DNA of 64,000 bases. Origin: Candidatus Bathyarchaeia archaeon. GTDB lineage: Archaea > Thermoproteota > Bathyarchaeia > 40CM-2-53-6. The stretch's first letter is position 1; every line of letters starts with the position of its first letter. The notes below the pieces were generated by a model. The model searched no databases, was not told the DNA's origin, and was given only the letters and a program-made list of their open reading frames with translations. The stretch is from assembly GCA_050013255.1 (NCBI GenBank), contig JBEKFP010000001.1, positions 448,001-512,000 of the forward strand. The letters run 5' to 3'. This document shows, piece by piece, positions 27,385 through 57,474 of the stretch. The position numbers and the translations under genes are program-made.

Positions 27385-28726
27385 CCCTCACAACTTGCCT
27401 CATGAGATTCAGAGCCGTCTCCCTCTCGTCCCATGAGACGAAAACAAGAATGCTCGAGGCCAACGTCAGCATTCCGAAAATGTTGATTCCCTTTTCGCGC
27501 AGGCGCTGCGATATTCTACCTATGATCCCGGGAGTGTCCTCCAGGCCAACCCCTTTGACTTTCAGGAAAGCCAAGTTTGCTTGGACTGCCATCGCGAGGG
27601 TTTCGCTGCAACTAGTGACCAAGTCATGGACGCTTGTGAGTGGAAAAGTCTCAGGAGTCTGGGGGACATAGAATATGACGGAGTCGAAGTTGGCTGAGAG
27701 ACCATCGAGCGCCGAATGTTGTCTTATCTCACGCACTACGTTAGCTAGTATCTCCGGGTTTTCGGAAATGGCTTTGCCGGTTATTGTGATCGCCATCGCG
27801 GGGGTCCTGCTGGCAAAAGTAACCTCGATTTCGCCTGATATTCCGCCTGTGATGATTGTTCCGTCAGCTTCTAGGTCGTCTTTATTGTGATTAATCACTT
27901 TGACTGGTATATCGGGATCTTTGTATTTCAGAGCCTTCCTGTGGATGAATTTGGTTCCTGAACCTGCTAACCCCACGAGGGTTCCAACTTCTATCTGCGC
28001 GAGTTTACGTGCGTTTGGAATGATTTTGGGGTCAGCTGTGAGGATTCCATCAGCGTCAGTTACCAAGACGACCTCGTCAGCTCCGATAGCTTTTGCTATG
28101 ATGAAAGCGGTTGTGTCGCTTCCGCCTCGCCCTATGGTGCTTATCTTGCCCCCAGTTGAGCGGCCTACGAATCCAGCGATTACTGGCACCGTCCCCCAGT
28201 CGAGTAGTGGGACGACGTGCTCACGGACTTTCTGCAAGCACAACTCAAGTATTGGGTTCGCGTTGGAGAAGTCATCATCAGTAATGATCGGCCAATCGGC
28301 GTCGGTCGGATCGAAGTATCTCGCTTCGAGACCTTCGGCTTTAAGCGCGGTGGCAAAGATACGTACGCTGGTTCTTTCGCCCATCGCTAGAACGTCATCT
28401 AGATCCGTCTTATCCGGCGCCTTAGTAGAGTCATGATTGACAAGGCCGATAAGCTGGTCAGTCATCTTCCCCATGGCTGAAACTACTACAACGAGTCGAG
28501 TGCCCTTCGCCGTCTCTCTGGATACTAGCCGGGCAGCTTTCGCAATGCGGTCTTTGTCCGCTAGGCTTGAACCGCCGAACTTGACAACAATTCTGCGTGT
28601 CTTTTGTTTAGATGAAGTACCGGGACTTGCTGTGATTACCGTTTGAAGTGTTCTCGGCGCAGAAATCTTACTTGACAGAGTTTGGGGCGTGGTAGAGCCA
28701 GTAGCCCTCACCGTAAATGTAATCAC
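27374..28726 (-). CDS. lysC: Aspartate kinase with ACT domains (true start unresolved)
   Basis: VVKFGGSS, VVSAMG, GRGGSDTTA, TDADGI.TADP; only GTG 28726/28711 lie upstream of the conserved domain. Confidence 0.92.
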   Translation of the reverse strand: MITFTVRATGSTTPQTLSSKISAPRTLQTVITASPGTSSKQKTRRIVVKFGGSSLADKDRIAKAARLVSRETAKGTRLVVVVSAMGKMTDQLIGLVNHDSTKAPDKTDLDDVLAMGERTSVRIFATALKAEGLEARYFDPTDADWPIITDDDFSNANPILELCLQKVREHVVPLLDWGTVPVIAGFVGRSTGGKISTIGRGGSDTTAFIIAKAIGADEVVLVTDADGILTADPKIIPNARKLAQIEVGTLVGLAGSGTKFIHRKALKYKDPDIPVKVINHNKDDLEADGTIITGGISGEIEVTFASRTPAMAITITGKAISENPEILANVVREIRQHSALDGLSANFDSVIFYVPQTPETFPLTSVHDLVTSCSETLAMAVQANLAFLKVKGVGLEDTPGIIGRISQRLREKGINIFGMLTLASSILVFVSWDERETALNLMRQVVRGEL

Positions 28727-28754
28727 CGTGCATTGTACCAGCCATTTGTTTCAT
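28668..28754 (-). CDS. Putative Tyr/Trp-rich leader peptide of the ask-asd-aro operon, MKQMAGTMHGDYIYGEGYWLYHAPNSVK*
   Basis: GAGGGG SD 6 nt before ATG; 4 Tyr + 1 Trp within codons 12-21; first ORF after a TATA-like box; overlaps ask out of frame. Confidence 0.6.
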   Translation of the reverse strand: MKQMAGTMHGDYIYGEGYWLYHAPNSVK

Positions 28755-28793
28755 ACTACGCCCCTCGGTAGCTGAACGCACCACTTGAATGTG

Positions 28794-28801
28794 ACTTAAA
28801 A
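28794..28801 (-). promoter_or_regulatory. Putative TATA box of the aromatic biosynthesis operon
   Basis: TTTTAAGT on minus strand ~30 nt upstream of the leader SD. Confidence 0.5.
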
Positions 28802-28844
28802 GAATTCCTCAGCCAATCAACATAATCTTGCGTCGAAAGACAAT

Positions 28845-29537
28845 TCACATTCCTATGTACAGGCGCTCAGCCAAGAATTTCGGTAGTCCGGCTTGAACAA
28901 TTTTGTCTGCGACGGGGTCAACGTCATATTCGACTCGTATGACATCGAAGGATGCTTGCCCTTCGGAGATCGTAAGGGTTGCGAAGCTTGCTCGAGGGTC
29001 GCTATCTCGCGGCTGGCCCACACTGCCTGGATTACCTACTATGCTTCCTCCAAACGAATACGCCATAGGCACGTGCGTATGCCCGAGCAGCACTATCTCT
29101 GCCCCACTTCGTGCGACCAATTTCCGTGCGGCCGAATCAGTTAAGCTTGGCAAAACGTATTCTGTCAGCGGATTACTTGGGCTGCCGTGAAAGAGGCCTA
29201 AGAGTTTACCACCCTTTTCCAAACTTGCTGAGGGCTGTAAGGTGGCCAGGTATTCATGGTACTGATGTGCGATTTTCTTCCTAGTCCATTCTACAGCTTC
29301 AGCTGCATGGAATGAGAACCCTCCAGTGTCGCCCGTTACAACCGCGTAATCATGGTTTCCCATTAGCACTGCGCTTGGCCTAAGCTGTCTAAGTCTTTCC
29401 ACTACTTCGTTTGGTTGGGGCCCGTAACCCACCAAGTCTCCCAAGCAGAATAGTTCATCATAGTTAGGTAACTTGGCGATGACTGCTTCAAAGGCGTCGA
29501 GGTTCGAGTGAATGTCAGAAATGACAACGATTTTCAA
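28845..29537 (-). CDS. Metallophosphoesterase (calcineurin-like)
   Basis: SDIHSN, GDLVGYG, GNHD, HGSP, GHTH, NPGSVGQPRD. Confidence 0.9.
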   Translation of the reverse strand: MKIVVISDIHSNLDAFEAVIAKLPNYDELFCLGDLVGYGPQPNEVVERLRQLRPSAVLMGNHDYAVVTGDTGGFSFHAAEAVEWTRKKIAHQYHEYLATLQPSASLEKGGKLLGLFHGSPSNPLTEYVLPSLTDSAARKLVARSGAEIVLLGHTHVPMAYSFGGSIVGNPGSVGQPRDSDPRASFATLTISEGQASFDVIRVEYDVDPVADKIVQAGLPKFLAERLYIGM

Positions 29538-29593
29538 CGGAAGCGCCGTGGAATGAGCGACCTCGCCTGAGAAATGGTTAGCGGTTTGTTCTG

Positions 29594-30196
29594 TTAAAGT
29601 TCCAAGTCAATCTGCTCGACGTAGGAGAGATCCTCGCCACAGTATGGACAGAGTTTGAACGTTCTATCAACTTTCTTCCCGCATTCAGGACATTCGACCT
29701 TGAATGGGTACCTGCAGAAGGGACAGAGTGCAAAGTCAGCTGCAACTCTGCGCCCGCATTTCTTACACAGTTGTTCACCGCTACTATCTGCAACATGTGT
29801 TGGGTGCTCCGGACCTTGAATGATGACTGGTAAGGGCTGTCCGGAACCGGAACTCGAGTCTCGAACGATATTTTCACGAAGAATACGGTGAAGTTGGAAT
29901 GCGTCAGGTTTTGCCAGGTTACCAACCTTGATGCTTTGTACTCCTGACCGCATTAGAATTTCGATGCTGGCCCTGCGGACTCCTCGGTCAAGTTTGATGT
30001 TGACCATGTTAGAATAAGGATAATCAACGAAGCTTTTCTTCAGCCCCAATCCGCCTGTTTTGCGAATTATGATACGCTGGTCGCTGACGACCACCGTCTC
30101 GCTGCCGCGTAGGACCCAGATGACTTTCTCATCATAGTTGATGAGGTGTTTCATGTCCTCCGGTACTGGTAGCGTTCCCAAATGATGGAGCCTCAT
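29594..30196 (-). CDS. Bacterial-type PH domain protein with C-terminal double zinc ribbon
   Basis: E.V......VVSDQRIII...G......DYPY..M pattern; C-terminal CKKCG/CPFC/CPECG/CPYCG; start ATG 30196 chosen. Confidence 0.7.
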   Translation of the reverse strand: MRLHHLGTLPVPEDMKHLINYDEKVIWVLRGSETVVVSDQRIIIRKTGGLGLKKSFVDYPYSNMVNIKLDRGVRRASIEILMRSGVQSIKVGNLAKPDAFQLHRILRENIVRDSSSGSGQPLPVIIQGPEHPTHVADSSGEQLCKKCGRRVAADFALCPFCRYPFKVECPECGKKVDRTFKLCPYCGEDLSYVEQIDLEL

Positions 30197-30362
30197 GTAA
30201 CAGCGAACCGTTGAGCGCCTTTTGATGATAAGATGTATTGCACTACAGTACAAAAAAACCTGGTAAATATAGGAAAGAAAACGACCCAGACAATGCAATT
30301 TCACACGCCATCACCAAGTTGAGTTAAGTATGTTCAACTTGCCTAGTTGGTGGTAGATTGCT

Positions 30363-30749
30363 ATGGAAATGAATGAGGCGACAATGGAGGTAAACTCCAG
30401 AACTTTCAGAGTGAACTATTCGGGGCTTGAGAACGCTGTTATAGCCTTCTTCTTTGAAGATCGGATGCGCTTAGGAACACTCGCCATCGCTATGCCTGGG
30501 ATGGATGAGGTCGCTGTTGGCCGCTCTTCTGTCCTTGTCGGTGGAAAATATCTCATGACGAGTCGAGCCTTGGCGGAGAGGCTCGCCGGAAAGAGTGGAA
30601 GGATCGCGCTCGTATCACTATTCACGGAGCTTGATGAGGCGGAAGCGTTTCGGATATACGCAAAACTTCTTGAAAAGGTACAATTGGGAACTCAAAGCGC
30701 AGAGAAGTCTTTGCGGCCTAACAGATCAATACGACAAAACATTGGATAG
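30363..30749 (+). CDS. Conserved hypothetical protein, possibly proteasome assembly chaperone (PAC4-like)
   Basis: RLGTLAIAMP...S..L.G.....SRALAERLA...G.I.LVS pattern, recalled resemblance only. Confidence 0.45.
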   Translation: MEMNEATMEVNSRTFRVNYSGLENAVIAFFFEDRMRLGTLAIAMPGMDEVAVGRSSVLVGGKYLMTSRALAERLAGKSGRIALVSLFTELDEAEAFRIYAKLLEKVQLGTQSAEKSLRPNRSIRQNIG

Positions 30750-32015
30750 TGGCGATTCTCCCAGAACCTTAATCGCGGCCTCAGTTACTCGTTCCCTGTA
30801 TTCTTCTTTAGTGTATACGCGAATTATGTTCATGAACACTCGAAGGTCATCCACGACCTTCGAGAGCTCGGTTATCTTCTGTGGTACCTTTTCACCCAAA
30901 CGGTTCCTTGAGAAAATTGGTATGTCGATTGGGCCGATGTCCATAGCGTAATGATATGGTACGGACGGAAGGGAGGGAACGTCAATTCCGACATCTGACA
31001 AGGGGACCTTTGCTTTGGCGGCGATATCCTCCTCGAGTTTCAGCCGCACGTTTTCGTTGGTGAATACGCTTGAGACGAGTTCATCCTTAGCAAAGAAGGT
31101 TCTCTCGTAAGCGCATTTCAGAAGTCTCCTTTCGGATAGCTCCCGTATGATTTGTCGGGATCTTGGATTCAATAACAGTTTCGACCAAACTGTGTAATCA
31201 TCCCATTCCATGTACTCGTCTGGAGTTTTCACCTTGAGAATTTCAAGATCTTCTTTAGCCGCGTCCAAGGCTTTGAGCATCATCATTTGAACTGCTCTGC
31301 AGGCACGGTGGAAGTAGATAGCCCTGAATGACTCGAGCCGAGCCAAGATGAGGCTCTCAAGGGTAGGGAGTGCGGTTATGTCAACTGCTAAGTTGCCGTC
31401 CAAGATGTCCATCGTGTATATCAGCCGAAAAACATCGACCGATCCATAACCTGCCCCAGTATGGTAGGAGTCTCTAACGACAAAATCCATCTTGTCGACG
31501 TCGAATGAACTGCTGATTATTTGGCCAAGGAATCGCTTCCCGGGCTTGGAATGTTTGCCGACAGCAAGGTTGCTTAATTCCTTAGCATCAAATCCTTGTT
31601 CCTCGATCACTTCACTCAAGCTTGAGTTGGCGATGATCCAAGTCGACATGTCCTCGTGGTTCCGCCCAAGATATTTGAGGAGGAAGGGTTCGAAGAGGTG
31701 TGAAAAGGGAGCGTGCCCAACGTCGTGCAATAAAGCAGCCAGACGCACTTTCTGTTTTTCGTCGGCTGAAAGCTCCGTCGGAATATTCTCAGCGACTACA
31801 CCTGCAAGGTACATAGCCCCTAGAACGTGTTCGAACCGAGTGTGGTTTGCAGCTGGGTAGACATACTCTGCCCCCGCGAGTTGCCTAATCCTTCGTAGCC
31901 TCTGAACAGCGAGGGTATCGATGACGTTACGTTCAATCTCGGTTAAGCGAATGTAACCGTAAACGGGATCCTTGATGAAACCCCAATATTTCTCTTGGTT
32001 ACCATCGACTGCCAA
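30726..32015 (-). CDS. HD-domain phosphohydrolase (SAMHD1/dNTP triphosphohydrolase-like)
   Basis: IKDPVYG, QRLRRIRQL, HTRFEH.LG, LLHDVGH.PFSH.FE, DVDKMDF..RD, IYFH. Confidence 0.88.
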   Translation of the reverse strand: MAVDGNQEKYWGFIKDPVYGYIRLTEIERNVIDTLAVQRLRRIRQLAGAEYVYPAANHTRFEHVLGAMYLAGVVAENIPTELSADEKQKVRLAALLHDVGHAPFSHLFEPFLLKYLGRNHEDMSTWIIANSSLSEVIEEQGFDAKELSNLAVGKHSKPGKRFLGQIISSSFDVDKMDFVVRDSYHTGAGYGSVDVFRLIYTMDILDGNLAVDITALPTLESLILARLESFRAIYFHRACRAVQMMMLKALDAAKEDLEILKVKTPDEYMEWDDYTVWSKLLLNPRSRQIIRELSERRLLKCAYERTFFAKDELVSSVFTNENVRLKLEEDIAAKAKVPLSDVGIDVPSLPSVPYHYAMDIGPIDIPIFSRNRLGEKVPQKITELSKVVDDLRVFMNIIRVYTKEEYRERVTEAAIKVLGESPLSNVLSY

Positions 32016-32250
32016 ACCTTAACCCCTCCATGCCAAAATGACTTTCCGTCTGAGATTCAACCAATCTCGTGCCTGGCCTGATTTGTGTTCATACGATTGG
32101 TATAATGTTGCCTCAGGACTGGCTGGGGAAAATAGGGGAATTGAATTGAACTGTGTAGGAGCCTTCCTACAAGGCCCAAACAGTCTATGTTTGATTGAGC
32201 ACTGCTAAGAAGATTGCAACACCAGAACGAACGATTTGGTCGCTAATCGT

Positions 32251-32844
32251 TCAGTCTTCCCTGAGGATAATAAGCAGAGCAAGAGAGACAGATGTCAAAA
32301 CCACGTAGACTGCTATGTCGGATAGAACGGGAGTAAGTGATGCCACTACCTCAGAAACAAACAGCACTCCTATGGTTAGCACGTAGCACCCCGCAAAGAT
32401 AATCCCGAAACGGGCCAATTTCCGATTGATATCCCTAAGCGATTTATTCACCATACGGGCGTTGGGTTCAAACTCTGTGTCCCCTAGCCAATTCGATACT
32501 TGCTTATGATAGTTCAAAACGAGAGTGAGGAATTCAACACCGAACAAAAGCATGACGAACGTGAGGAGAAGGACGGCTAGATTCGCTGAAACAACTTTCA
32601 GCAGTGTGTCCGAGATGAGTGAGATCGAGAATAGAATGGCTTGAGCGAGGAGTGAAGCTCTACCCCAAGCCGGATTTCCTTTTGAGATTGCCAACAGCGA
32701 GAAGACCGCCACTATAATCGGACCGAGTACGGTTATCGAAATTAACCTCGGTGGATAAGATGACACAATTGCGAACGCGGTGAGCACAAGCCAGAATGAG
32801 GAAAGCCCCCGCAGAAGAATCCAACCAGACCGATATTGATTCAT
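32251..32844 (-). CDS. Multi-pass membrane protein in MoxR operon
   Basis: About 6 hydrophobic segments; 4-nt overlap with the DUF58 gene. Confidence 0.7.
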   Translation of the reverse strand: MNQYRSGWILLRGLSSFWLVLTAFAIVSSYPPRLISITVLGPIIVAVFSLLAISKGNPAWGRASLLAQAILFSISLISDTLLKVVSANLAVLLLTFVMLLFGVEFLTLVLNYHKQVSNWLGDTEFEPNARMVNKSLRDINRKLARFGIIFAGCYVLTIGVLFVSEVVASLTPVLSDIAVYVVLTSVSLALLIILRED

Positions 32845-34106
32845 AATGGTCTCCCCGTTTTTCTTCCCCGTAGCGCTGATTTGATAGGAACGTTTGGCGA
32901 AATCTCAATCACCGTGGCTACTTTGGCAGTTTGCATCATTCTGGCTCTCCTCTCAATAGTCAAGATTCTTCTTGCAATGTTCAAGGACCCTTTTGTTCCC
33001 TTGGACTGTGTGGTCGGTGTGAAGCATACAACATTGTAACCTTTGGTTGCTACGTCTACGATCACCTTCACAATGTCGTCGCTGTCGAGAGGGGAGATGA
33101 CTACGATCACTGACCTTGCGGGTACTGTCGAAACTATTACAGACTGGACAGCGTAATCCATCGGAATAGTGGCTCGTCCCGGTTTTGCAATAGCCAGGTT
33201 GTCCAGAATTCTTAGCAGCTGCCTTCTTCCAAACCCAAGGTTGACCCATGTTCGAACAGCGCCATAGACGGATAAACCAACCCGGTTTCCCTGGCGGATA
33301 AGTTGTGAGCAGAGTGATGCCGCCACATTGACCTCGAACTCAACAGCGTCGAAATCTAAGAGTTCGGGCTGTATCTCCTGGGAACAGTCCAGTAGAACCA
33401 ACACATCAGTGGCTTGTTCGCCCTCGAATTCATTTGTAACCAGTTCTCCCATTTTCGCTGAGGCTTTCCAGTTTACCCGCCTGAGTTCATCGCCCGGAAC
33501 GTAAGGGGATAACTCGAAAAATTCCGACCCACTCCCGATCTTACGGGATGGAATCTGACCTGGCCATGGGCTTATCCGTGTTGCTTTTAGGTTAAGCATC
33601 CCGACTTCCTCCATTCTTGGGAGAACAATTAGCTCATCCGTATTGCCGATTTGCTCGCTCACTTCCCGAAAACCCATTATGTCTGATACGCTGACCGACA
33701 GGGGTCCTAGTACGTAGATGCCTCTTTTCGGCGCTGAAATCGTGTAATGATTTTCAATGGTCTCACCTGATCTCACCGACACTGTGAGAGCCTTCGTACC
33801 CGTCTTGATTGTGAGAGGTTCCGCGATAATTTCGTCCAAGCAGACGTTATCGAAGCTTTGAAGCGAGTTGTTTTGAACCCCCAGCGTAATCTCGACATCC
33901 TCATCGCCTAGCGACCGGTCGGGATGGAGTACTCTTGAGGGTCTCATACTGACCCTGAGATTCGAACCGGGTCTATGTGAGATGAAGAAAAGAAACGCGA
34001 TTGGAACGACAAGCGCACTGACGTAGGGTTCTCCAAAAAAGAGCGCGTAGCCAATGAATGCGTAAGCTATCCCCAAGTAAAGGAGAGCTTTTCTCGAGAG
34101 CACCAT
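32841..34106 (-). CDS. DUF58/vWA-like MoxR partner
   Basis: RG.Y.LGP, EFFEL.PY.PGDELRRVNWKASA, VLLD.S. Confidence 0.9.
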   Translation of the reverse strand: MVLSRKALLYLGIAYAFIGYALFFGEPYVSALVVPIAFLFFISHRPGSNLRVSMRPSRVLHPDRSLGDEDVEITLGVQNNSLQSFDNVCLDEIIAEPLTIKTGTKALTVSVRSGETIENHYTISAPKRGIYVLGPLSVSVSDIMGFREVSEQIGNTDELIVLPRMEEVGMLNLKATRISPWPGQIPSRKIGSGSEFFELSPYVPGDELRRVNWKASAKMGELVTNEFEGEQATDVLVLLDCSQEIQPELLDFDAVEFEVNVAASLCSQLIRQGNRVGLSVYGAVRTWVNLGFGRRQLLRILDNLAIAKPGRATIPMDYAVQSVIVSTVPARSVIVVISPLDSDDIVKVIVDVATKGYNVVCFTPTTQSKGTKGSLNIARRILTIERRARMMQTAKVATVIEISPNVPIKSALRGRKTGRPL

Positions 34107-35065
34107 CAGTCTACCCTAGGCACCGGAACTTTTCTCAACACTTCGTTGATGATGACCGTGGCATCGAACCCACGGATCCAGGACGCAGCCTTAGGGATTA
34201 TTCTGTGCGACAGTGCCTCCACCGCGATTGCTTTCACATCATCAGGTATGATGTAGTCTCTACCCTCAAAAGCAGCGTTGGCCCGCGCAAGTTTGAGTAA
34301 GGCAAGGGAGCCACGGGGGCTAGCGCCTATTGCCAATTGGCCGTGAACCCTAGTCTCTCGAACAATGTCGGTAATGTACGCGAGTACATCATCATCCGCG
34401 TGCACCCCTTCGATCGAATCTTGCATATCTACTAGGGTCTTTGGGTTGACAATCGCGCTAACTACGAAATCATCGCTTCTACGAGCGATTCGCCTCCTAA
34501 GGATTTCAAGTTCGCCGCTCTTGTCGGGGTAACCGATTCTTAACTTCATGATAAACCGGTCGAGTTGTGCCTCGGGCAGTTGGTAGACTCCCTCGAATTC
34601 GATTGGGTTCTGCGTGGCTAGCACTATGAACGGGTTCTCTAGGCGGTGAGTATTGCCGTCAAGAGTTGTTTGTCGTTCCTGCATAGCCTCAAGAAGCGCC
34701 GCCTGAGTTTTGGGGGGGCTACGGTTAATTTCATCGGCAAGGAGAATGTTGGTGAATATCGGGCCTTGCTTAAGTTCGAAGTCTCCTCTTCTCTGGTTAT
34801 AGACATAAGTTCCAGTGATATCTGCTGGCAATAGGTCCGGCGTGAATTGTACCCGAGTGAACTTGCAACCTACGGCAGCAGCTAAAGATTTAGAGATTAG
34901 CGTTTTGGCTAATCCAGGGAAATCCTCTATCAACATATGCGAGTTCGCAAGCACACCGAGTAGAATTTTCTGTAGAGCTACCTCCTTGCCTACGATGACG
35001 GTGTTCAATTCCTGCTGTATTTTCTTGCAGTTTTCCGAAATGTCTTCGATTTTCAAGCTACCCAA
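34106..35065 (-). CDS. MoxR family AAA+ ATPase
   Basis: EDFPGLAKT, RVQFTPDLLPADITG, ADEINR, ATQNPIE, LPEAQLDRF, GASPR. Confidence 0.95.
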   Translation of the reverse strand: MGSLKIEDISENCKKIQQELNTVIVGKEVALQKILLGVLANSHMLIEDFPGLAKTLISKSLAAAVGCKFTRVQFTPDLLPADITGTYVYNQRRGDFELKQGPIFTNILLADEINRSPPKTQAALLEAMQERQTTLDGNTHRLENPFIVLATQNPIEFEGVYQLPEAQLDRFIMKLRIGYPDKSGELEILRRRIARRSDDFVVSAIVNPKTLVDMQDSIEGVHADDDVLAYITDIVRETRVHGQLAIGASPRGSLALLKLARANAAFEGRDYIIPDDVKAIAVEALSHRIIPKAASWIRGFDATVIINEVLRKVPVPRVD

Positions 35066-36464: not shown

Positions 36465-36550
36465 TTCTGATGGTCGGATACAGATTAAAGGGAAGCGTAA
36501 AACGAGCCAACATTATGGCCAGAAGGCGTCGAAGGCTTGGGGTTAATGCC

Positions 36551-36730
36551 ATGAAGTTTCTCCTTCAGCATCCTAATTTCACCTATGACGGACAAAAAAC
36601 TCAACTTGTAGATAGTCTCAAGACGCTTGCATCTGATGCGGAGAATCTCGGTTTCGATTCATTTTGGACAATGGATCATTTCCTCTTATCTTTTGAGTTG
36701 CAAAGAATCATTCCTCTATCATCGCGATGA
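36551..36730 (+). pseudogene. Truncated LLM-class (F420-dependent-type) oxidoreductase N-terminus
   Basis: MKFLLQHPNFTY...AE.LGFDSFWTMDHF matches the luciferase-like N-terminus; similarity is then lost and the ORF stops after 59 aa. Confidence 0.75.
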
Positions 36731-37345: not shown

Positions 37346-37389
37346 TACCCTTCATGATTCAAGCGAAATAAGTGTGAGCTAACAGGGGC

Positions 37390-49800: not shown

Positions 49801-50580
49801 GGAGTCAAGTTGCTTCAGCGACCAGTCCCAGCGGGGACGAAGACGCTGCAATACACAAACCTAGCAGGACTCTTCAGTTACGTCGAACCAAGCTCAGGCC
49901 CAACCAATTTGGGGATATCCGCCGGAGTGCGCAGTGCCACACTTTTCTCTCCAGACCATGGAATCTGGGGCTACTCTGATCATCCCGGCGCGTACGGCGG
50001 CGGATGGACTGTTATGGTCGACTTTGTGAATTGGTCAACGTTGACCAGCAACTACCCGCCCGTGCCAGGCCTCTTACAGGGCGAGTCCCCATACTTCTAC
50101 CCCTACAATCACCTCGGGCCGTTCAGACAGGTGACCTACACCAAGATTTCGAATGCGCCACAGGGAGGCGAGGCCTCAGCCGAATTTGAACTCGACTTGA
50201 GAGGTTACGTTAGTGGGCTCATTCTTGGAATGGACTGGGACAACAATGTGCGGACAGTAAGCTGGGCAAGCATTGCGTTCACCAGCAGTGGCACGAGTCT
50301 TTACTGGTACACTTGGGACGGGTTTTTCGATGGCTACCTCGATCCTAGCAATTATCATGCATTGATCACCGAGTGGACGAGCGCGAACCAAGGGCATATG
50401 TCACGCTCACTAGATTTGTCCGTGTCCTTAGGTCAAGCGAATAGCGTAACGAATGTGGTACTTGACGAGAGCGGAATCCCAATCCCGGAAACACCCGGCT
50501 ACTCCGCTCTTCTACTGACTACACTCACTCTATCTTTGGGTGCATTATACTTCGGTCGTAGACGGAGAAGCAGGAAGTAG
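46816..50580 (+). CDS. Large secreted cell-surface protein with repeated beta-sandwich modules and PEF-like C-terminal sorting signal
   Basis: Signal peptide; repeats PG.Y.L.A/V...GY/F; C-terminus IPIPE-TM-RRRRSRK. Confidence 0.75.
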   Translation: MAPRWVQAVLVLALTASMLTPVYAHTTLGNLTGSNTYFRYNDHELNPTNTFGTAHVPGPLGYVWPGGGLNTYTGNPSNPPGYQSPFEDFEGPIQEGANAYAPEGAILTSTADHDSVGDLIFAVNFSQPHAFPHPGNFKYSTLALYIPAPVFDKTGKLIQDGFEPAAGINWDNGENTNIVTTITDSYADIFVTRADSNDPFEPGSWIIFITAPNNITFTSARGWSEWYYLRINQMKAPLIAGRYFFKMFLDNHFPLHRQGALPKLVNSTMPMENWPVLLVKGEVDPAIITGTVKFGDQSNPNFYGLPLNLPGRIRAVGTATDPTTGISTGRGVEARGYFNATSQGHFEIEGVAPGIYDLYASAAGFPEQQIATDVRVSRGQSLTFDAYLKAGPQIAGRAYSKALFGSFPWPGQLPITVVIYNSNTYDTDSIVTYSPANLTDAPFVSYVTGNTMFAGSRLAGTNKPRSVAFPWEGPISYYALTTAPAFKDPFGIFNGVGPAQPWWVDPVGNANPLTSLGSSSSDFAFQFGATGAYGAPAQFSGMVPQVFATWTDSLTPGKYYVRVYVNGYVQTTPDGTQPIDYAFDVPQNGFSTNVFLPIDLEKSPAINLMIHFHDLAETIIDAPIGGPDPNRFLIAEAYARDGTLAALNFTQVSSKSAQATLSLDGLGMAGPILPPDPRASIKYSLARYQGLFDYGLPTDTYTIRVYMRGYIQALPPATSFEDLDQPVTTTVSIGLGVAIVSTHMYRGGEINATVFSVDWERPAVTRNWVWNSAPVSTLIYDVSSKNFIDVIYFWNSKLNQWVLPTQNSKFQNLPWPGWQTIFGAGASLLVTNGSTLVDRFGPDLPSLKSLDPAQDKATTIFLEENFRTGFLYSSSSYRTNAFRSALAIYPGVYALNSWTYGYVQDNVASLGDLGNVLVSVSWLGSLADTQVQLIVGLNLTITMIFKTENIFSEVPFNSSVRIRVFDDGDTLIAAATVFSDAGTLAPTSNAGFFADGVKLLQRPVPAGTKTLQYTNLAGLFSYVEPSSGPTNLGISAGVRSATLFSPDHGIWGYSDHPGAYGGGWTVMVDFVNWSTLTSNYPPVPGLLQGESPYFYPYNHLGPFRQVTYTKISNAPQGGEASAEFELDLRGYVSGLILGMDWDNNVRTVSWASIAFTSSGTSLYWYTWDGFFDGYLDPSNYHALITEWTSANQGHMSRSLDLSVSLGQANSVTNVVLDESGIPIPETPGYSALLLTTLTLSLGALYFGRRRRSRK

Positions 50581-50638
50581 TTGAAGCCGCTTACATAGTG
50601 CGTTTGGACAGCATGATCGCGATCGGGCCACAGCCGCG

Positions 50639-50942
50639 TACCCACCAGCCCCAGCTCTCCTTCAGGGCGAATCGCCCTACTGGTATACATGGGACGGATG
50701 GTTTGGTTGCTACCTAGACTCAGGTACCTACCAGGTAACTGTTACTGAATGGATCCATAACGGAGGTCACCATCAAATCATGTTCACGCTCAGTGTGAAT
50801 CAAGGAGAACAAAACGATAGCGCTCAACTACATTCTGGAAGAAAGCCAAATCCCCATACCAGAACTCACATCGATTCCCCTAAGCACCTTGACAGTATGC
50901 GTCGCAGCAGTATTCCTGTTAAAGAGGAGAAAACGCAGGTAA
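50639..50942 (+). pseudogene. Degenerate paralogous copy of the C-terminus of the upstream 1254-aa surface protein
   Basis: YPPAPALLQGESP-YWYTWDGWFGCYLDSGTY.VTVTEW...LSVNQG, then after a frameshift LNYILEESQIPIPELTS-TM-KRRKRR*; matches the upstream YPPVPGLLQGESPY...YWYTWDGFFDGYLD...LDESGIPIPE. Confidence 0.85.
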
Positions 50943-51056
50943 CTCTACGTCCCGGGTTTCGATAGCTGTATCGCGATGGGCTAAGTTCGTTCTCGTCCTG
51001 AAACCTCTACGAACATCTGCTAAGATTTCCTGCATAATCCGTGCTTCGAATTCGCG

Positions 51057-52187
51057 CTAAATTGTACGTTTGGACAAAAGTATCGCGATGGGCATTAGTA
51101 TCAGACTGCTAACGAACAGGATGAGCAGGTCGCCTACGATAGCGTTGGGCCCAGCGCCCAAATAGATCAGGCGTCTAAGCGCATCATTACCATACGTCCA
51201 AGGCAGGCTGTCCGCAATCGCCTGGCCGCCAGGCGCAAGGAGGAGAGGGGAGTTTACTGTTCCGGCTAGGGAGAAGAGTGGGAAGGTCATCGCTATCTCC
51301 AGAACCGTAAGAGTGGCTGTACTTCGGATTCTCGTTGATATCGTTAAGCCTAGGGAGAATGTGAAGATGGCGATCAAAACGGTTGTCAGGAAGATGAGTA
51401 TAAGGTTTCCATGAATCACCAAACCGTAAAGACTGAAGATAACCAGCATCAATGCAGTGCGCAGAATCGTAAGAACTATCGTGGCGGACATTTTACCGGA
51501 ATAGACTGCGAAAAGGCTCACTGGGGACAGAGTCAATCGCGGGAAAGTGCCTCGTTCTCGTTCCCTGTTGATCGCGTTTACAATATCATCAAAACCGCCA
51601 AGGATGGCGATTAGGCCCAAGAAGCCTGGCAGGATCGGGTCGCCGCTTGGCGGACGCCCAGTCATGGTCCTTGTGATCACCTCGATTGGGGCGATCTTCA
51701 GTCCGAAATTAATGCCGCCCTCACCGGAGGTTACCTGGTTGACGAGATCCTGAGCGCCCTGGTTCACCGCGCCAACCACGAACTGCGAAGAGGTCAACTT
51801 GGAATTATCCGTAGAGACGATAACGAAGGCGTCTCCCGCCAAAAGTGCCTTTCCGAATCCTTGAGGTATAATTATGGCTCCAACGGCTTGCGCATTATTA
51901 ACCGCTTGATAGGCTTGATCTTCGGTTTGCACGAGTTGAGTTACGTGGATGAAGCGTGATCGCGTTAACTCGTTGAGCATCGCGTCCGAGGCCGGCGTTC
52001 CATCTAGATCAGCAACGACCACGGGCACATTATGGGTGGTGGCGCTGAACGCCGCAACGATCACTATGAAGATACCAATCAGGATAATTGGGAACATAAC
52101 CGTCAAAATGAGGGAGACAGGGTCGCGGCGGAGCTGCTTCAGTTCCTTCATCGTAATAGCAGCCGTGTCGCGAACGAAATAGCTCAA
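51057..52187 (-). CDS. ABC-2 exporter permease
   Basis: KEL.QL.RD, AIIIP.GF, RERERGT..RL..SP, LPWTY..DALR. Confidence 0.9.
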   Translation of the reverse strand: MSYFVRDTAAITMKELKQLRRDPVSLILTVMFPIILIGIFIVIVAAFSATTHNVPVVVADLDGTPASDAMLNELTRSRFIHVTQLVQTEDQAYQAVNNAQAVGAIIIPQGFGKALLAGDAFVIVSTDNSKLTSSQFVVGAVNQGAQDLVNQVTSGEGGINFGLKIAPIEVITRTMTGRPPSGDPILPGFLGLIAILGGFDDIVNAINRERERGTFPRLTLSPVSLFAVYSGKMSATIVLTILRTALMLVIFSLYGLVIHGNLILIFLTTVLIAIFTFSLGLTISTRIRSTATLTVLEIAMTFPLFSLAGTVNSPLLLAPGGQAIADSLPWTYGNDALRRLIYLGAGPNAIVGDLLILFVSSLILMPIAILLSKRTI

Positions 52188-53350
52188 GCAATCAACCTCT
52201 CCCGGAAGCTGTGAAGCAGCACGAAGGCGAGTGCGAACGAGACGATTATGAATCCAATCATATATTCAAGATCAAAGGTCAGAGAGAGCAATGGCCTACC
52301 GAGCAGTATTGTACGCCTCAACGCGTCGAATGCATAGGTAAAGGGTAGAGCGCTGCTTATGGTCTTCGAGATACCAACCAGCAAATTGTTGTCAATAACC
52401 AAGCCGCTGAACGCGAAGAGGAATAGGATCAGAAAGAACGTTATGATCACCACAGCTCTCTGCCCTAACTTCAAGGCAGCCGCCACGAAGCCAATCCCCA
52501 TCGTTACGATCGCAACGATCAGAGACAACGCGAGAATCGTGCCGAAGTCCGTACTCGGCTTGGCTCCGTACCCGTAGATGCCCATCCCAAGAACAATGAA
52601 AGTTCTCAAAACGCTCAAGAGAATGTCAAAGAGTGTTTTCCCCAACATGATTGAGCCGATTGGAATTGGCGAGGCGAGAAGACGGGCATACGTTCCCTCA
52701 TCCCGTTCCCGAGCCATTCCTCCTGCAATCTCATAGAATACTGAAAAGATTTGCACGATCGCTAGTATAGTGGTTAATCCAACATTGAAGCTGGCGAATA
52801 TGGCTCCCTTCCGAACAACCCCAACTCCCGCAACTGACTGCTTCTGCAGCTGACTCAGGGCGGGTTGGACCTCCACGTTGGGGTCGAAATTCTGCGCGTA
52901 TCCCGTCAGGGTGCTCTGAATTTGGTCGGATACGCCGGGTTCACTGTCATCCGTATAGAGTACCAGCCTCGCCTGATTCCCGTTTTCTAAAGCATCTTGG
53001 AACCCCTTGGGAACGACAATCACAGCATAGATGCGTTTAGTCCCGAGCTCAGCTATGGCGGCTTGCTCATTGTAGCTTTGTATCAGGTTATGGAAGTCAG
53101 GTGACCTGGTCAACGTTTGCCAGAGGCGGAGTGAGGCGATTGTATTGTCATTATCTACGAAACCGATTGGAATGTTCGCCGTAGGGGAGAACGACGTTCC
53201 CGCGCCACCTTGACCGGCACCGAAGGAGACCGTGAAGAACAGAGGTAAGACGACGAGTGAGATCAGTATGGCGCTTCTATTCCTGCGGAATTGACGAAAC
53301 TCGTTCTCAGCAATGGCAAGAGAATCACTGAGAAATGTTGCGACCGACAT
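52184..53350 (-). CDS. ABC-2 exporter permease (second paralog)
   Basis: EFRQF.R, VIVVPKGF, RERDEGT..RLL.SP, LPFTY..DALR; start ATG 53350 chosen. Confidence 0.9.
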   Translation of the reverse strand: MSVATFLSDSLAIAENEFRQFRRNRSAILISLVVLPLFFTVSFGAGQGGAGTSFSPTANIPIGFVDNDNTIASLRLWQTLTRSPDFHNLIQSYNEQAAIAELGTKRIYAVIVVPKGFQDALENGNQARLVLYTDDSEPGVSDQIQSTLTGYAQNFDPNVEVQPALSQLQKQSVAGVGVVRKGAIFASFNVGLTTILAIVQIFSVFYEIAGGMARERDEGTYARLLASPIPIGSIMLGKTLFDILLSVLRTFIVLGMGIYGYGAKPSTDFGTILALSLIVAIVTMGIGFVAAALKLGQRAVVIITFFLILFLFAFSGLVIDNNLLVGISKTISSALPFTYAFDALRRTILLGRPLLSLTFDLEYMIGFIIVSFALAFVLLHSFRERLIA

Positions 53351-53369
53351 TCGCAACCCCGACTGCACT

Positions 53370-54356
53370 CTATGCCTTTCGGCCTGCCCCCTCAAGGAAT
53401 CGGTCGATTTCTTCTTCGCCGCCGGTCAATGCGATGAAAGCGTCTTCAAGCGTCGGATCCTTCGTGTTAATCGTTCTAATCTTCGCCCCTACTTCAAGCA
53501 GAGTGGCTGCGACTTCTTCTGCGAGCGTCTCAGTGCGTTCACAGCTAACTTGAAGTTTCGAATTCACATACTTCACGTTACAAACGTGACTCATCACTTT
53601 GAGTTTGAGTTTCACCTTGTCGAGTTGAGCCTTAGTCAAGTCGGGAGTCTCAACTTCCACAACGGAGAGTTCGCTCACGCTATGCTTCAATTCGTTCGGC
53701 GTGCCAACCTGAACTAACCTACCCGCGAACATTATACCAACCCGGTCACAGATCTTCTCGGGTTCACCCATGTAGTGGGTCGTCCAAATCACGGTCACTC
53801 CCTGATCACACTGTTTCTTCGTGAAATCTTGAAGGGCGATGGCAGATTGAGGGTCGAGGCCAGAAGTAACTTCATCCAGGAATAGAACCTGTGGACTGTG
53901 AAGCAAAGCTGCGCATATCATCGCCTTCTTCGCCCACCCAGTCGACAGAGCCCCCACCAGTCGGCTCGCTTTTTCCCTGAAAGCAAACATATCCATCAGC
54001 TCCCGTATCCTAACCTCAGCTTTGTGACGGGGGATCTCGTAGAGCGTGCTGAGCAGCTTCAAGTTCTCCTCAATCGTCAAGTCCTTGTACAAGGAGACCC
54101 CTTCAGAAACCACCCCAATCCGTCGCCTGACCTCGGCTGCCTGCTTGTGAATATCATATCCCACAACACTGGCCGTACCTCGTGTCGGTTCGATCAGTGT
54201 GCAAAGCATCCTGACCGTGGTGGTTTTTCCGGCGCCGTTGGGCCCAAGCAGGCCAAATAGCTCTCCTTTACTGACGCCTACGTTTAGACCGTCGACCGCG
54301 GTAGAATGACCGAACGCTTTCGTCAGGTTCTTTGTAACAATGGCTTCCTCAGGCAT
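53370..54356 (-). CDS. ABC-2 exporter ATP-binding subunit
   Basis: GPNGAGKTT, variant signature LSTGWAKK, FLDEVTSGLD, TTHY. Confidence 0.92.
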   Translation of the reverse strand: MPEEAIVTKNLTKAFGHSTAVDGLNVGVSKGELFGLLGPNGAGKTTTVRMLCTLIEPTRGTASVVGYDIHKQAAEVRRRIGVVSEGVSLYKDLTIEENLKLLSTLYEIPRHKAEVRIRELMDMFAFREKASRLVGALSTGWAKKAMICAALLHSPQVLFLDEVTSGLDPQSAIALQDFTKKQCDQGVTVIWTTHYMGEPEKICDRVGIMFAGRLVQVGTPNELKHSVSELSVVEVETPDLTKAQLDKVKLKLKVMSHVCNVKYVNSKLQVSCERTETLAEEVAATLLEVGAKIRTINTKDPTLEDAFIALTGGEEEIDRFLEGAGRKA

Positions 54357-54467
54357 GACAAATCATTCCTAGGATAGCTTGAATTTATGAGGGTTCTATC
54401 CTCTGAGCCACTAAAGAGGTTTACGCGGAAAACTGTTGGCTAATGCAAGGAAAGAAATGAATGCGCG

Positions 54468-55013
54468 TTAGGTTGACGAGTGCCATTCCACTTCCGGCTT
54501 CCTCTCTCGATAGTTGACCGCACGGGCGAGTACAAATAGCAGGTCGGATACTCGGTTGATATAAGGTACCATTAGGTCGCTGACCTTCTCAGCCTTGCTC
54601 AATGTGACTATACTTCTTTCGGCACGTCTTGCAACAGTTCTTGAGAAGTGTAGGATTGAGCCAGTCGGACCACCGCCTGGAAGAATGAAGGCTTTCAATG
54701 GGGGAAGTTCTTCTTGTAATTTGTCGATTATTCCCTCGAGTTCAGCTATTCTTTCCTTCGTGATTCGCGGAACCCTTTCGTGGCTCTCTTTTGAGGCAAG
54801 GTCAGCACCTGCCACAAACAGATCTTGTTGAAGGCCGTCTAAGATCATATCAAGCGCCGTATCATTCAAGAAGGATCGAACCAAACCGAGCACGGAATTG
54901 AGCTCATCGACGTTACCATATGCTTCTACGCGGAGCGAGTCCTTCGGAACCCGCCCCCCTCCTACGAGGCCTGTCTCGCCTTTGTCTCCTGTTCGAGTGT
55001 ATATCCTCGCCAA
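54468..55013 (-). CDS. ATP:cob(I)alamin adenosyltransferase, PduO type
   Basis: IYTRTGDKGET, RVEAYG.VDELN, FILPGG, RTVARRAER, YINR.SD.LF. Confidence 0.93.
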   Translation of the reverse strand: MARIYTRTGDKGETGLVGGGRVPKDSLRVEAYGNVDELNSVLGLVRSFLNDTALDMILDGLQQDLFVAGADLASKESHERVPRITKERIAELEGIIDKLQEELPPLKAFILPGGGPTGSILHFSRTVARRAERSIVTLSKAEKVSDLMVPYINRVSDLLFVLARAVNYRERKPEVEWHSST

Positions 55014-55075
55014 TTCCGAATACTCGCAGTTAATGAAGCGAGACAGCAATTTAGAGGCGTTGGTAGGTACTGACT

Positions 55076-55963
55076 GTGGCGAAGGGATTGAGGATCGGGG
55101 TACTCCTAGACGAGCCGATGGTCATACCAGGATTTGACTACACATTCTACGAAGTGAAACCATCAAGCGGGAGAATCAACCAGCCGCTTCCGCAAGCGTG
55201 GAATGTCGTAAATTGTTTCGCCGACAACACGATTACCCAAACCAAACCTGAGCTTGTCGCAACTTCGAAAGGAGAACGAGCAATGAGGGGGACGCCTAGG
55301 CGTTTCCTATGGGATTGGATTTGCCCTAGCCGGACTGAATACCGCGACTATTGCTTGAAGGTCATTCAAGATGTTGCGCGGCACAACGATGTTGCAGGGA
55401 TTCGTTTGGATAGCGTCTGTTTTCCACGAGAAGGCTACTGTGATTGCTCGATTTGCAGGGACTTAAGCGCGAAAAGTGGAATGGATTTCTTTGAATGGCG
55501 CGCTAGTCAAATCGAATCCTTTGTTCGTATGGTGCGCGAGAGCATAACGTGCGGATTGGGCCTAACATTGGAACCCGACCCTTGCTACGGAAAAGAAAGA
55601 TTCGGTTTGGACTTAGATAGAATAGCAGAGTATGTTGATTTCATTTCGACACCACTCTACATGGATTACTCGATTGTCTATTGGCTGGACATAATTGCGA
55701 ATTGTTTCCGCCGGAAAATATCGAAACCGTATTTCATCGAACTCTACGCGGGACATCCGAGAACTCCCACGAAGCATCTTATGTCTGCCTTAGCTGTGGC
55801 CTCGGGATACGCCGACTGTATCGTCCTTTCAACCTATGAAGCTAAGATCGCAAGAAGCCTGCAACAGGAATTGGTTCGAGAAGAACAAGTGGCGGGCTTT
55901 TTCAAAGAGCGTGAATGTACGGAAATGATAGAACTTCTAAACCGGTGGCGGAAGATTGTATGA
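55076..55963 (+). CDS. Putative glycoside-hydrolase-like TIM-barrel protein with Cys cluster
   Basis: W.CPS..EYR.Y, GIRLD...FP....C.C..C, WR...I..FV, G.D...IAEYVDFI.P.Y resemble GHL10-like families. Confidence 0.5.
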   Translation: MAKGLRIGVLLDEPMVIPGFDYTFYEVKPSSGRINQPLPQAWNVVNCFADNTITQTKPELVATSKGERAMRGTPRRFLWDWICPSRTEYRDYCLKVIQDVARHNDVAGIRLDSVCFPREGYCDCSICRDLSAKSGMDFFEWRASQIESFVRMVRESITCGLGLTLEPDPCYGKERFGLDLDRIAEYVDFISTPLYMDYSIVYWLDIIANCFRRKISKPYFIELYAGHPRTPTKHLMSALAVASGYADCIVLSTYEAKIARSLQQELVREEQVAGFFKERECTEMIELLNRWRKIV

Positions 55964-55987
55964 AACTACAGGCGCCGAGCCTTTCGA

Positions 55988-56003
55988 CGTACATTTTTGT
56001 ACG
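55988..56003. promoter_or_regulatory. Palindromic operator CGTACA-TTTT-TGTACG (TRP-box-like)
   Basis: Perfect 6-4-6 inverted repeat 7 nt upstream of the trp TATA box; each half is one base from TGTACA. Confidence 0.55.
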
Positions 56004-56010
56004 CTGTAGC

Positions 56011-56018
56011 TTTAAATA
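56011..56018 (+). promoter_or_regulatory. TATA box of the trp operon
   Basis: TTTAAATA upstream of trpE. Confidence 0.65.
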
Positions 56019-56037
56019 AAGTACTGATGTCAATTGC

Positions 56038-57474
56038 GTGGCACCGCATTATTCGAGGAAGAAAAAATGGGGTATAGCCTTTGGGCGGCCTGCCCAGCAA
56101 CTAACGACGCAAACAGAACATAGGCTAAAGCTTCAGAAATTCCGGTACTCGACAAACCCCGTACAGACATTTCTTGCACTCAGTCATCAGAGCGAATACT
56201 GTTACCTCCTCGAATCTGCTGAAGGCCCAAGAAAACTTGCGCAATATTCGTTCATTGGCTTCTCTCCTGAAAAAATCGTTGAAGTGAAAGATGGCCGCTA
56301 CACCGAAACGATCCCCGGAAACGCATCCACCACCATTCAGACAAACGATCCTTATCTCGCGCTCCGGAAGACGCTAGCCGAAAACTTCACAACGTATCAT
56401 GGGTTCCGGTTCGTAGGCGGCTTGGTAGGTTACTTTTCCTACGATGCAATTCGCTACCTCGAATCGATACCGACGCAAGCTCTAGATGATTTGAAACTTC
56501 CAGATTTCGAGTTCGGAGTTTACGATGATGGGATCGTATTCGACCACCTGAACGGCCAGGCTTACTATTACTGGTACAAGAATAACAGGTACAAAGAGAT
56601 TGAACGACTTCTCGCACAAAGGATAACGCCAACAAGCCTGGCCGTTGACCAACCGAGAGTAAACCTGAGGCAAGAAGAATTCGAAACAAAGGTGGACGAC
56701 GCGAAGAAGTACATTAGAGCTGGAGACATATTCCAGGTCGTACTTTCAAAACGCCTTGAATTCGCTTTCAAAGGCGACCTCCTCAATTTCTACAAAGCAT
56801 TACGGGAGATCAATCCTTCCCCTTACATGTACTTCCTCAAAATGAGAGACCGGGCTTTGGTTGGCTCAAGCCCCGAGATGCTTGGAAGAGTTGACAAAGG
56901 CCGCGCGGAAACATTTCCGATAGCGGGAACGCGCCCCGTGGGAACAAACAGCGAAGAAGACCGTCGCTTGGCGGACGAGCTATTGAGTGACCCAAAGGAA
57001 CGAGCTGAGCATATTATGCTGATAGATCTTGCCAGGAACGACCTTGGAAAAGTTTGCCAGTTCGGGACGGTTGAAGTTCCAGAGTTTATGGTGGTCCAAA
57101 GGTACAGCCACGTTCAGCACATAGTTTCGCGGGTTTCAGGTCAACTGAAGCCGGGTTGCGACTCGCTTGACACATTCAAAGGAATTTTCCCTGCAGGAAC
57201 AGTGTCTGGAGCGCCGAAAAAAAGGGCGATGGAAATCATTGAAGAGCTGGAACCGAACCGGAGAGGGCCATATGCTGGTGCAGCAGGCTACTTCTCGTAC
57301 AACGGCAACGCTGATTTCGCAATAACCATCCGAACGTTAATCGCCAATGGAAATATGGCCTACATACAAGCCGGAGCAGGCATAGTCGCGGACTCTCAAC
57401 CCACACGAGAATGGTTTGAAACAGAACATAAGGCCGAAGGCCTCATGCACGCCCTGAAAGTCGGTGGGATATGA
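56038..57474 (+). CDS. trpE: Anthranilate synthase component I (true start unresolved)
   Basis: YLLES, GG.VGY.SYD, GDIFQVVLS, NPSPYM, PIAGTR, KERAEH.ML.DLARND, PAGTVSGAPK. Confidence 0.96.
   Translation: MAPHYSRKKKWGIAFGRPAQQLTTQTEHRLKLQKFRYSTNPVQTFLALSHQSEYCYLLESAEGPRKLAQYSFIGFSPEKIVEVKDGRYTETIPGNASTTIQTNDPYLALRKTLAENFTTYHGFRFVGGLVGYFSYDAIRYLESIPTQALDDLKLPDFEFGVYDDGIVFDHLNGQAYYYWYKNNRYKEIERLLAQRITPTSLAVDQPRVNLRQEEFETKVDDAKKYIRAGDIFQVVLSKRLEFAFKGDLLNFYKALREINPSPYMYFLKMRDRALVGSSPEMLGRVDKGRAETFPIAGTRPVGTNSEEDRRLADELLSDPKERAEHIMLIDLARNDLGKVCQFGTVEVPEFMVVQRYSHVQHIVSRVSGQLKPGCDSLDTFKGIFPAGTVSGAPKKRAMEIIEELEPNRRGPYAGAAGYFSYNGNADFAITIRTLIANGNMAYIQAGAGIVADSQPTREWFETEHKAEGLMHALKVGGI
56067..56123 (+). 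CDS. Putative trp leader ORF MGYSLWAACPATNDANRT*
   Basis: GAGGA SD 7 nt before ATG 56067; contains CTT-TGG; trpE frame is +1. Confidence 0.5.
   Translation: MGYSLWAACPATNDANRT

Follow-up and report, generated by a model that had tools for sequence, protein, structure and literature searches.

How does a ribosome reach the first enzyme of an operon when the Shine-Dalgarno-led start codon in front of it lies in another reading frame? This question is raised by a 64,000-nucleotide (nt) stretch of the genome of Candidatus Bathyarchaeia archaeon (GenBank assembly GCA_050013255.1, contig JBEKFP010000001.1, positions 448,001 to 512,000 of the forward strand; hereafter the window), which carries two operons for aromatic amino acid synthesis, trpEGDCFBA on the plus strand and ask-asd-aro on the minus strand. 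An earlier note on this DNA had described both operons and a layout that they share, in which a TATA-like box precedes an ATG with a Shine-Dalgarno (SD) sequence, this ATG opens a short leader open reading frame (ORF), and the first enzyme gene follows in frame +1; Pfam assignments agree with the two operons, and the layout is present at each (Table 1). We consider it fairly likely that each leader is a site of programmed +1 ribosomal frameshifting after the design used by prfB, the gene of release factor 2 (RF2), with the stop codon replaced by a sense codon of the operon's own pathway. The support for this interpretation is good at trpE and moderate at ask.

The analysis covered 60 trpE 5′ regions of the same order (10 families) and 40 from 11 other families of the class. 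All 60 same-order loci and 36 of the 40 further loci carry the motif start-RGG-NRT-NRY-NTT-TGG in frame −1 of trpE, with standard spacing at 95 loci (21 families, 68 distinct 19-mers) and, at one locus (L067), with the leader start two codons further upstream and the frame unchanged. Across the 95 loci, position 1 is A in 85, G in 7 and T in 3 and is followed by TG at positions 2 and 3, so that the start is always ATG, GTG or TTG; position 4 is A or G only, positions 5 and 6 are GG, position 7 is free, position 8 is A in 89 and G in 6, and position 9 is T in 94. Positions 10 and 13 are free, position 11 is mostly a purine and position 12 mostly a pyrimidine, and the TTTGG of positions 14 to 18 is invariant (95/95). 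The putative slippery codon of the P site is CTT in 46 leaders, GTT in 34, ATT in 9 and TTT in 6, giving NTT-T throughout, and an SD-like stretch lies 5–11 nt 5′ of the leader start in most families. The out-of-frame start, the +1 offset and NTT-TGG, for which the earlier note had proposed an alignment of relatives, are all conserved.

The trpE frame itself offers few places to begin. From the preceding stop up to the motif, the trpE frame is devoid of ATG, GTG and TTG at 43 of the 60 loci of the same order, the starts at the rest being scattered, and the first trpE-frame start 3′ of the motif often lies already past the onset of the conserved domain (in this genome, 68 codons beyond TTT 56080). 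At 36 of the 95 loci, the trpE-frame triplet over the leader start is TGA. In addition, although the families diverge 3′ of TTTGG, the alignment gaps there are all multiples of three, which argues that the trpE frame is translated from TTTGG onward. Together, the start in frame −1, the scarcity of in-frame starts and the gaps in threes indicate that ribosomes reach trpE from the out-of-frame start and change frame within four codons. On this evidence, synthesis of TrpE very probably involves a +1 shift by ribosomes that begin at the conserved start.

The codon at which the frame would change is suggested by a constraint that the enzyme does not explain. Where a Phe codon overlaps TGG, all 26 full-length trpE genes and all 95 loci have TTT, whereas the eight other conserved Phe columns of TrpE hold 145 TTC and 61 TTT codons (30% TTT), each column being mixed. 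The third-position T of this codon thus has no coding rationale in the trpE frame; it makes the Trp codon in frame 0 and UUU in frame +1. The motif is absent from four loci, L245–L247 (family f22) and L252 (family f27), where TrpE has an ordinary Met start just before the conserved domain and no FG... N-terminal extension, indicating that the motif is not needed as protein. We judge it probable, if with less assurance than the shift as such, that the frame changes at NTT-TGG and that Trp is sensed there.

Most of the remaining constraints on the trpE motif appear better explained by pairing with the 3′ tail of the 16S rRNA than by coding. The tail, GGAUCACCUCCU-3′, was taken from five relatives; the three contigs of this genome's assembly contain no 16S rRNA gene. 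Motif nucleotides 2–12 pair with GGAUCACCUCCU at a mean of −7.7 kcal/mol, against −2.8 kcal/mol for the trpE coding background, and the 59 same-order motif windows have a median of −6.1 kcal/mol, in the best 7% of that background. In the predicted duplex, motif G3 faces rRNA C10, R4 faces U9, G5 faces C8, G6 faces C7, R8 faces U4, U9 faces A3 and, when present, C10 faces G2. Positions 4 and 8, which are restricted to A and G, thus stand opposite rRNA U, where both A-U and G-U pairs are allowed; position 4 makes no coding sense in the trpE frame, where it gives TGG or TGA. The predicted duplex ends at nt 10, leaving 2 nt to the slippery codon, whether the leader is that of trpE, of ask or of E. 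coli prfB.

The ask leaders of the same order, examined at 59 loci, fall into two layouts. Class I comprises 42 loci by the criterion of an open frame, among them L054, which is really class II and open by chance, and spans this genus, a sister genus and a second family. Here the ask frame is open for 45–99 codons 5′ of the kinase core and overlaps a translated leader in frame −1 that has its own SD, spaced 6–7 nt from an ATG, GTG or TTG start. NTT-TAY or NTT-TTC sites occur in 41 of these 42 loci with a long open extension, and NTT-TAY in 16 of 16 alignable loci of the genus. The +1 offset and the NTT-TAY/TTC site, whose conservation the earlier note had left to be examined, are thus kept in 41 of 42 class I loci, within three clades only. 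The leader core reads ...TTC GGT GGT CAC ATT TAY GGT GAY CAC TAC TGG... in the genus, ATG GGT GGT CAT CTT TAC TGG in the sister genus and ATG GGT GAC CGT CTT TTC GGT GAT GGC GTT TAC in the second family; in the latter two, the slippery and the aromatic codon stand fifth and sixth, the same geometry as in the trpE leader.

The class I module is a GGTGRTC-type stretch, 2 nt, and then NTT-TAY or NTT-TTC. Most NTT-T(A/T)Y sites are preceded by such a 16S-pairing stretch (GGUGRUC type; median −11.4 kcal/mol over 66 sites), the R of which also faces U4 of the tail, while a few ask sites further down the extension pair weakly. Within the genus, changes that are synonymous in the leader frame (TAT/TAC, GAT/GAC) replace Met by Thr or Ile by Thr, or the reverse, in the ask frame, which argues that the leader frame is under amino-acid selection there; variation in the ask core of the genus is spread evenly over the three codon positions (19/20/24) and singles out no frame. 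Following the site, 35–55 (~43) unconserved, Ser/Thr/Pro-rich codons lead into the kinase core. The extension contains 0 stops in the ask frame against 88 and 83 in the other two frames. For the ask gene of this genome, we lean, by a narrower margin of confidence than for trpE, towards a product made likewise by a shift, at ATT-TAC.

The frame is broken by one base inside the variable ask extension at L042 and L048, and L042 differs from its near-identical relative L043 by one base in a purine run; these breaks may be assembly errors, or the extension may tolerate them. In L033, the closest relative but two, TGA replaces the TGG of the ask leader and ends the leader right after Tyr, and the upstream GTT-TAC site is retained.

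In class II, found in other families, ask has a normal SD-led ATG near the kinase core and a separate Phe/Tyr-rich ORF upstream, and a perfect 14–15-bp hairpin with U5 stands directly 3′ of the leader ORF, before the SD-ATG (z −4.9 and −4.05). One class II leader contains seven consecutive Tyr codons. Loci of this class, which shows a bacterial-style attenuator layout in archaea, include L051, L053, L054, L056, L057 and L058.

That a shift occurs, that it takes place at NUU-U and that it responds to the supply of aminoacyl-tRNA is what we infer from these sequences, and the following mechanism is proposed. The ribosome would start at the SD-led, out-of-frame codon (ATG 56067 for trp, ATG 28754 for ask) and advance until NUU occupies the P site (CUU 56079 or AUU 28718), with UGG (trp) or UAC (ask) in the A site, while the 16S 3′ tail would pair with the SD-like stretch ending 2 nt 5′ of NUU and abutting the E-site codon. 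With charged tRNA-Trp or tRNA-Tyr plentiful, the codon would be read and translation would terminate at the leader stop (TAG 56123 or TAA 28668). With the charged tRNA scarce, a longer pause would let the P-site tRNA re-pair on UUU, at three of three positions for tRNA-Leu on CUU and at two of three for GUU or AUU, and reading in the enzyme frame would then give TrpE or Ask. Downstream genes would probably follow via overlapping stop/start junctions: trpE and trpG overlap by 11 bases (57464–57474, plus strand), as do ask and asd (27374–27384, minus strand), and coupling through these overlaps could carry the decision down each operon. Several later gene junctions in both operons overlap too, which fits translational coupling along each operon. 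We favour sensing over a fixed rate of shifting mainly because the codon in the A-site place matches the pathway, as the earlier note had claimed: it is TGG in 95 of 95 trpE leaders and TAY or TTC in ask leaders.

Within this genome, a genome-wide scan found the six-codon pattern with a long open +1 frame at a gene start at trpE only, and a relaxed genome-wide pattern for ORFs without a start returned nothing convincing beyond trpE. Four look-alikes of the six-codon pattern were set aside, as each falls within an unrelated gene: one encodes an ABC-2 transporter, one a pyruvyl transferase and one a thiolase, and the fourth is unassigned. ARAGORN called 7 tRNA genes without its intron option and 30 with it, some of them with implausible anticodons; a tRNA-Leu(GAG) gene is among the predictions, though the calls are unreliable in this intron-rich genome, whose tRNA genes appear to be heavily intron-split.

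Several observations weigh against a shift at these sites. With GTT or ATT in the P site, re-pairing on UUU would involve just two of the three anticodon positions; the SD-like stretch of trpE in this genus offers 5 pairs only, with a 5-nt spacer; and motif positions 11–12 (R, Y), the predicted E-site codon, are left unexplained by rRNA pairing. For ask, the stop count of the extension is partly circular, as class I was defined by its open frame. The other points on that side are those on which two alternative explanations build.

The first alternative holds that both enzymes begin at ordinary in-frame GTG codons (56038 for trpE; 28726 or 28711 for ask), the leaders being upstream ORFs that regulate in some other way or are incidental. 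GTG 56038 lies close to the predicted start of transcription, ~27 nt downstream of the first base of the TATA box; a leaderless mRNA could begin here, with TrpE translated from its 5′ end. Likewise, the GGTG of every class I ask leader creates an in-frame GTG three codons before TTT, and sometimes an ATG is found near the aromatic codons, so that ordinary initiation of ask is possible. The earlier note had seen no ATG, GTG or TTG near the conserved N-terminus of either enzyme, and had named GTG 56038 and GTG 28726 or 28711 as rival starts. For trpE, GTG 56038 is the only candidate and occurs in this genome and its closest relative only (L001 and L002); for ask, GTG 28726 and GTG 28711 are both in frame. 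As a general start for trpE, however, an in-frame GTG is opposed by the 43 of 60 loci without any upstream in-frame start and by the TGA over the leader start described above. In ask, the GTG sits within the stretch complementary to the anti-SD, and the upstream SD is spaced for the leader start instead. Moreover, a ribosome stalled at the aromatic codon would cover the GTG and lower enzyme output under starvation, the wrong direction for feedback control. We regard this explanation as unlikely.

The second alternative accepts a +1 shift but moves it towards the front of the leader, for example to RGG-N directly behind the start codon, where it would be constitutive or respond to another signal, with G-I-A-F-G really translated as part of TrpE. 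The trpE-frame reading G-[IVM]-[AVIT]-F-G does look protein-like: the free positions 7, 10, 13 and 19, and the variable position 4, are third positions of the trpE frame, and the residues are conservative, with I in 85, V in 5, M in 4 and A in 1 at one codon and mostly A, V, I or T at the next. These features together make an earlier shift possible. Yet T is invariant at position 16 (95/95) despite the preference for TTC as a Phe codon, position 4 faces an rRNA U and has no rationale in the trpE frame, and Leu never occurs at the Ile position. In addition, TrpE lacks this N-terminal extension in the families that have no motif, and the parallel ask leaders have Tyr or Phe codons in the same place. 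We therefore find an earlier shift somewhat less credible again than ordinary GTG starts, and retain NTT-TGG as the preferred site.

Could TrpE instead start at a non-AUG codon of its own frame within the motif (ATA, ATC or ATT at nt 8–10), with the out-of-frame ATG ORF as a competing upstream ORF? The triplet at nt 8–10 is ATH in 85 of the 95 loci and ATG in 4, but it is GTN or GCT in the other 6, the upstream SD is spaced for the ATG and lies 12 to 17 nt from the nt 8–10 codon, and the internal GG stretch abuts that codon at a spacing of 0–1 nt. Such a start would also leave the invariant start codon, TTT and TGG unexplained, and we hold it to be very improbable.

Classical leader-peptide attenuation, in which the position of the ribosome decides which RNA structure forms and each enzyme has a start of its own further downstream, has a precedent in the same order, since class II ask leaders have exactly this layout. 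The leaders of the window share the short ORF with codons for the amino acids of the pathway, but neither the RNA structures nor the downstream starts. RNAalifold found no conserved structure (0 pairs) from −30 to +100 of the trpE leader across 40 loci, and the ask leader of the window folds no better than shuffled sequences (z −0.55) and has no terminator-like site. No start lies near the enzyme cores in this genome and its clade: here the next one in trpE is the distant codon noted above, and the nearest ask-frame start to the kinase core is GTG 28711, 40 codons upstream, the Pfam AA_kinase domain beginning 45 codons after GTG 28726. No SD-like stretch was seen by eye near the TrpE or Ask core in this genome. 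Attenuation at these two leaders thus seems hardly any likelier than a non-AUG start. Finally, there is a negligible chance that the offsets are assembly indels or mark decaying genes. The data come from a metagenome assembly, and frame breaks do occur at L042 and L048. The same +1 offset recurs, however, at 95 independent trpE loci and at 41 loci of ask, neither enzyme shows other damage and both are conserved, and relatives do not show the leader ATG in the enzyme frame that the earlier note had named as the mark of an indel, which in practice rules out assembly error.

Table 1. Elements of the trp and ask leaders, with positions counted from the first nucleotide of the window
Feature	Position	Strand	Remarks
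Palindrome GTACA-TTTT-TGTAC	55989..56002	+	Directly 5′ of the trp promoter; adjoins the B recognition element (BRE)/TATA region
TATA-like box of the trp operon, TTTAAATA	56011..56018	+	Similar distance to the leader start in relatives
GTG, sole canonical in-frame trpE start before the conserved domain	56038..56040	+	Near the predicted transcript 5′ end; unconserved
SD-like GAGGA	56055..56059	+	7 nt 5′ of the leader ATG
trp leader ORF (frame 0), ATG GGG TAT AGC CTT TGG ... TAG	56067..56123	+	18 codons; ATG 56067; TGG is codon 6
Internal anti-SD-complementary GGGGT	56069..56073	+	Extends to 8 pairs ending at motif nt 10 in most other families
Proposed shift site CTT-TGG	56079..56084	+	CTT 56079–81 (P-site Leu), TGG 56082–84 (A-site Trp); would read TTT GGG after slipping
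trpE frame as entered after the putative shift	56080..57474	+	TTT 56080–82; anthranilate synthase component I domains ~24 codons on
TATA-like box of the ask-asd-aro operon	about 28795..28803	−	Inside a promoter block conserved in the genus
SD-like GAGGGG	28761..28766	−	6 nt 5′ of the leader ATG
aro leader ORF (frame 0)	28668..28754	−	ATG 28754 to TAA 28668; 28 codons, 5 Tyr and 1 Trp; peptide core kept in the genus
Internal anti-SD-complementary GGTGATT	28721..28727	−	7 predicted pairs with the 16S tail, −10.3 kcal/mol; ends 2 nt before ATT
In-frame ask GTG codons	28726–24 and 28711–09	−	Rival ordinary starts
Proposed shift site ATT-TAC	28713..28718	−	ATT 28718–16 (P-site Ile), TAC 28715–13 (A-site Tyr); would read TTT ACG after slipping
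ask frame as entered after the putative shift	27374..28717	−	~41 variable codons free of stops; aspartate kinase core begins at ~28594
Leader Trp codon TGG	28698..28700	−	TGA in the relative L033

According to Pfam, trpE, G, D, C, F, B and A occupy 56038–62554 on the plus strand, and the ask operon runs from 28726 to 19674 on the minus strand with nine genes, in the order aspartate kinase, aspartate-semialdehyde dehydrogenase (asd), DeoC-type aldolase, 3-dehydroquinate synthase II, aroD, aroE, GHMP-type kinase, aroA and aroC. This gene set corresponds to the archaeal aspartate-semialdehyde/6-deoxy-5-ketofructose-1-phosphate (DKFP) route to chorismate. The promoter block of the ask operon (~28795–28830, minus strand; ..TGAGGAATTCTTTTAAG..) is near-identical across the genus, a degree of conservation beyond what a mere TATA box would require. 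Many relatives have repeats containing GTAC where the trp palindrome stands here; the palindrome at 55989–56002 may be an operator of a TrpY/Tar-like regulator and thus a second layer of control on the trp operon.

Apart from TrpY, to which the same paper adds the activator Tar, little is known of how aromatic amino acid synthesis is controlled in Archaea (PMC6737238). The archaeal recoding cases given in the part of a 2016 review available to us are viruses, magnesium chelatase and a Sulfolobus candidate only (PMC5009743). The literature that we searched describes no frameshift, whether in Archaea or in trpE, that senses Trp or Tyr, which agrees with the earlier note's remark that no archaeal control of this kind was known to it. 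Should the proposed mechanism hold, Archaea would have their first amino-acid sensor that acts in translation, hungry-codon frameshifting would have a natural role in regulation, and the prfB design would have been re-used independently with a sense codon. Sensing would fall to the ribosome itself, with recoding as the output in place of attenuation, T-boxes or repressors. We give an even chance to the broader proposition that archaea of this class use a family of RF2-like +1 switches, in which the A-site codon specifies the operon's end product (Trp; Tyr or Phe), as a widespread mode of amino-acid feedback. There is a consequence for annotation as well: with no start codon for trpE in the majority of these genomes, a gene caller is forced to shorten the gene, lengthen it or begin it at the wrong place. 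The trpE motif is just 18 nt long and the mutations that it predicts are clear, which makes the proposal directly testable.

Among known control systems of the same pathways, the archaeal regulators TrpY of Methanothermobacter and Tar of Thermococcus are alike in host and target, and the GTAC palindrome may be an operator of this kind (PMC6737238); they are DNA-binding proteins acting at promoters, whereas the leaders described here would act during translation. The trpL-trpE and pheL-pheA attenuators share with them a short translated leader with codons for the pathway's product and the ribosome as sensor, and the class II ask leaders are comparable to these. The window, however, has neither alternative hairpins nor a terminator, and the enzyme start is not conserved (trpE) or not nearby (ask); the output would be a change of reading frame and not termination of transcription.

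Other +1 shifts come closer. Antizyme also uses a +1 shift as the sensor in a metabolic feedback loop, but it is eukaryotic, shifts at a stop codon (UCC-UGA) with polyamines and a downstream pseudoknot, and turns on a negative regulator, whereas here scarcity of the product would turn on the biosynthetic enzymes. Yeast Ty1 (CUU-AGG-C) and hungry-codon shifting resemble the proposed sites in a P-site CUU, a slowly read sense codon in the A site and a shift set by the supply of one aminoacyl-tRNA; at the level of sequence, both leaders place a P-site codon capable of re-pairing beside a sense codon that can become limiting. In Ty1, however, a constitutively rare tRNA fixes the ratio of products, whereas the codon here is that of the pathway's end product. 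The hungry-codon +1 shifts of E. coli studied by Gallant and co-workers figure in the available part of the 2016 review as an experimental phenomenon (PMC5009743); they are errors seen in experiments and not a conserved form of gene control.

The closest likeness is to prfB (AGGGGG-UAU-CUU-UGA-C). In both, a short 5′ ORF precedes a main product encoded in frame +1; the P site holds NUU, mostly CUU, followed by U, so that re-pairing on UUU is possible; the A-site codon is slowly read in prfB and would be so here, with the logic of negative feedback; and an internal SD-like stretch, weaker in the trpE of this genus, forms a predicted duplex ending 2 nt before the slippery codon. As in prfB, the product of trpE has no usable start of its own; this does not strictly apply to ask, where a GTG is always in frame. 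The differences are equally plain. The proposed trpE shift site comes as early as codons 5/6 of the message, the duplex is set 4 nt deeper in the rRNA (to G2 of GGAUCACCUCCU), the host is archaeal and a biosynthetic operon would be regulated. Above all, the A-site codon is a sense codon (UGG, UAY or UUC) and not the UGA stop, and charged tRNA rather than a release factor would be sensed, which suggests a switch that works like prfB but stands outside that family.

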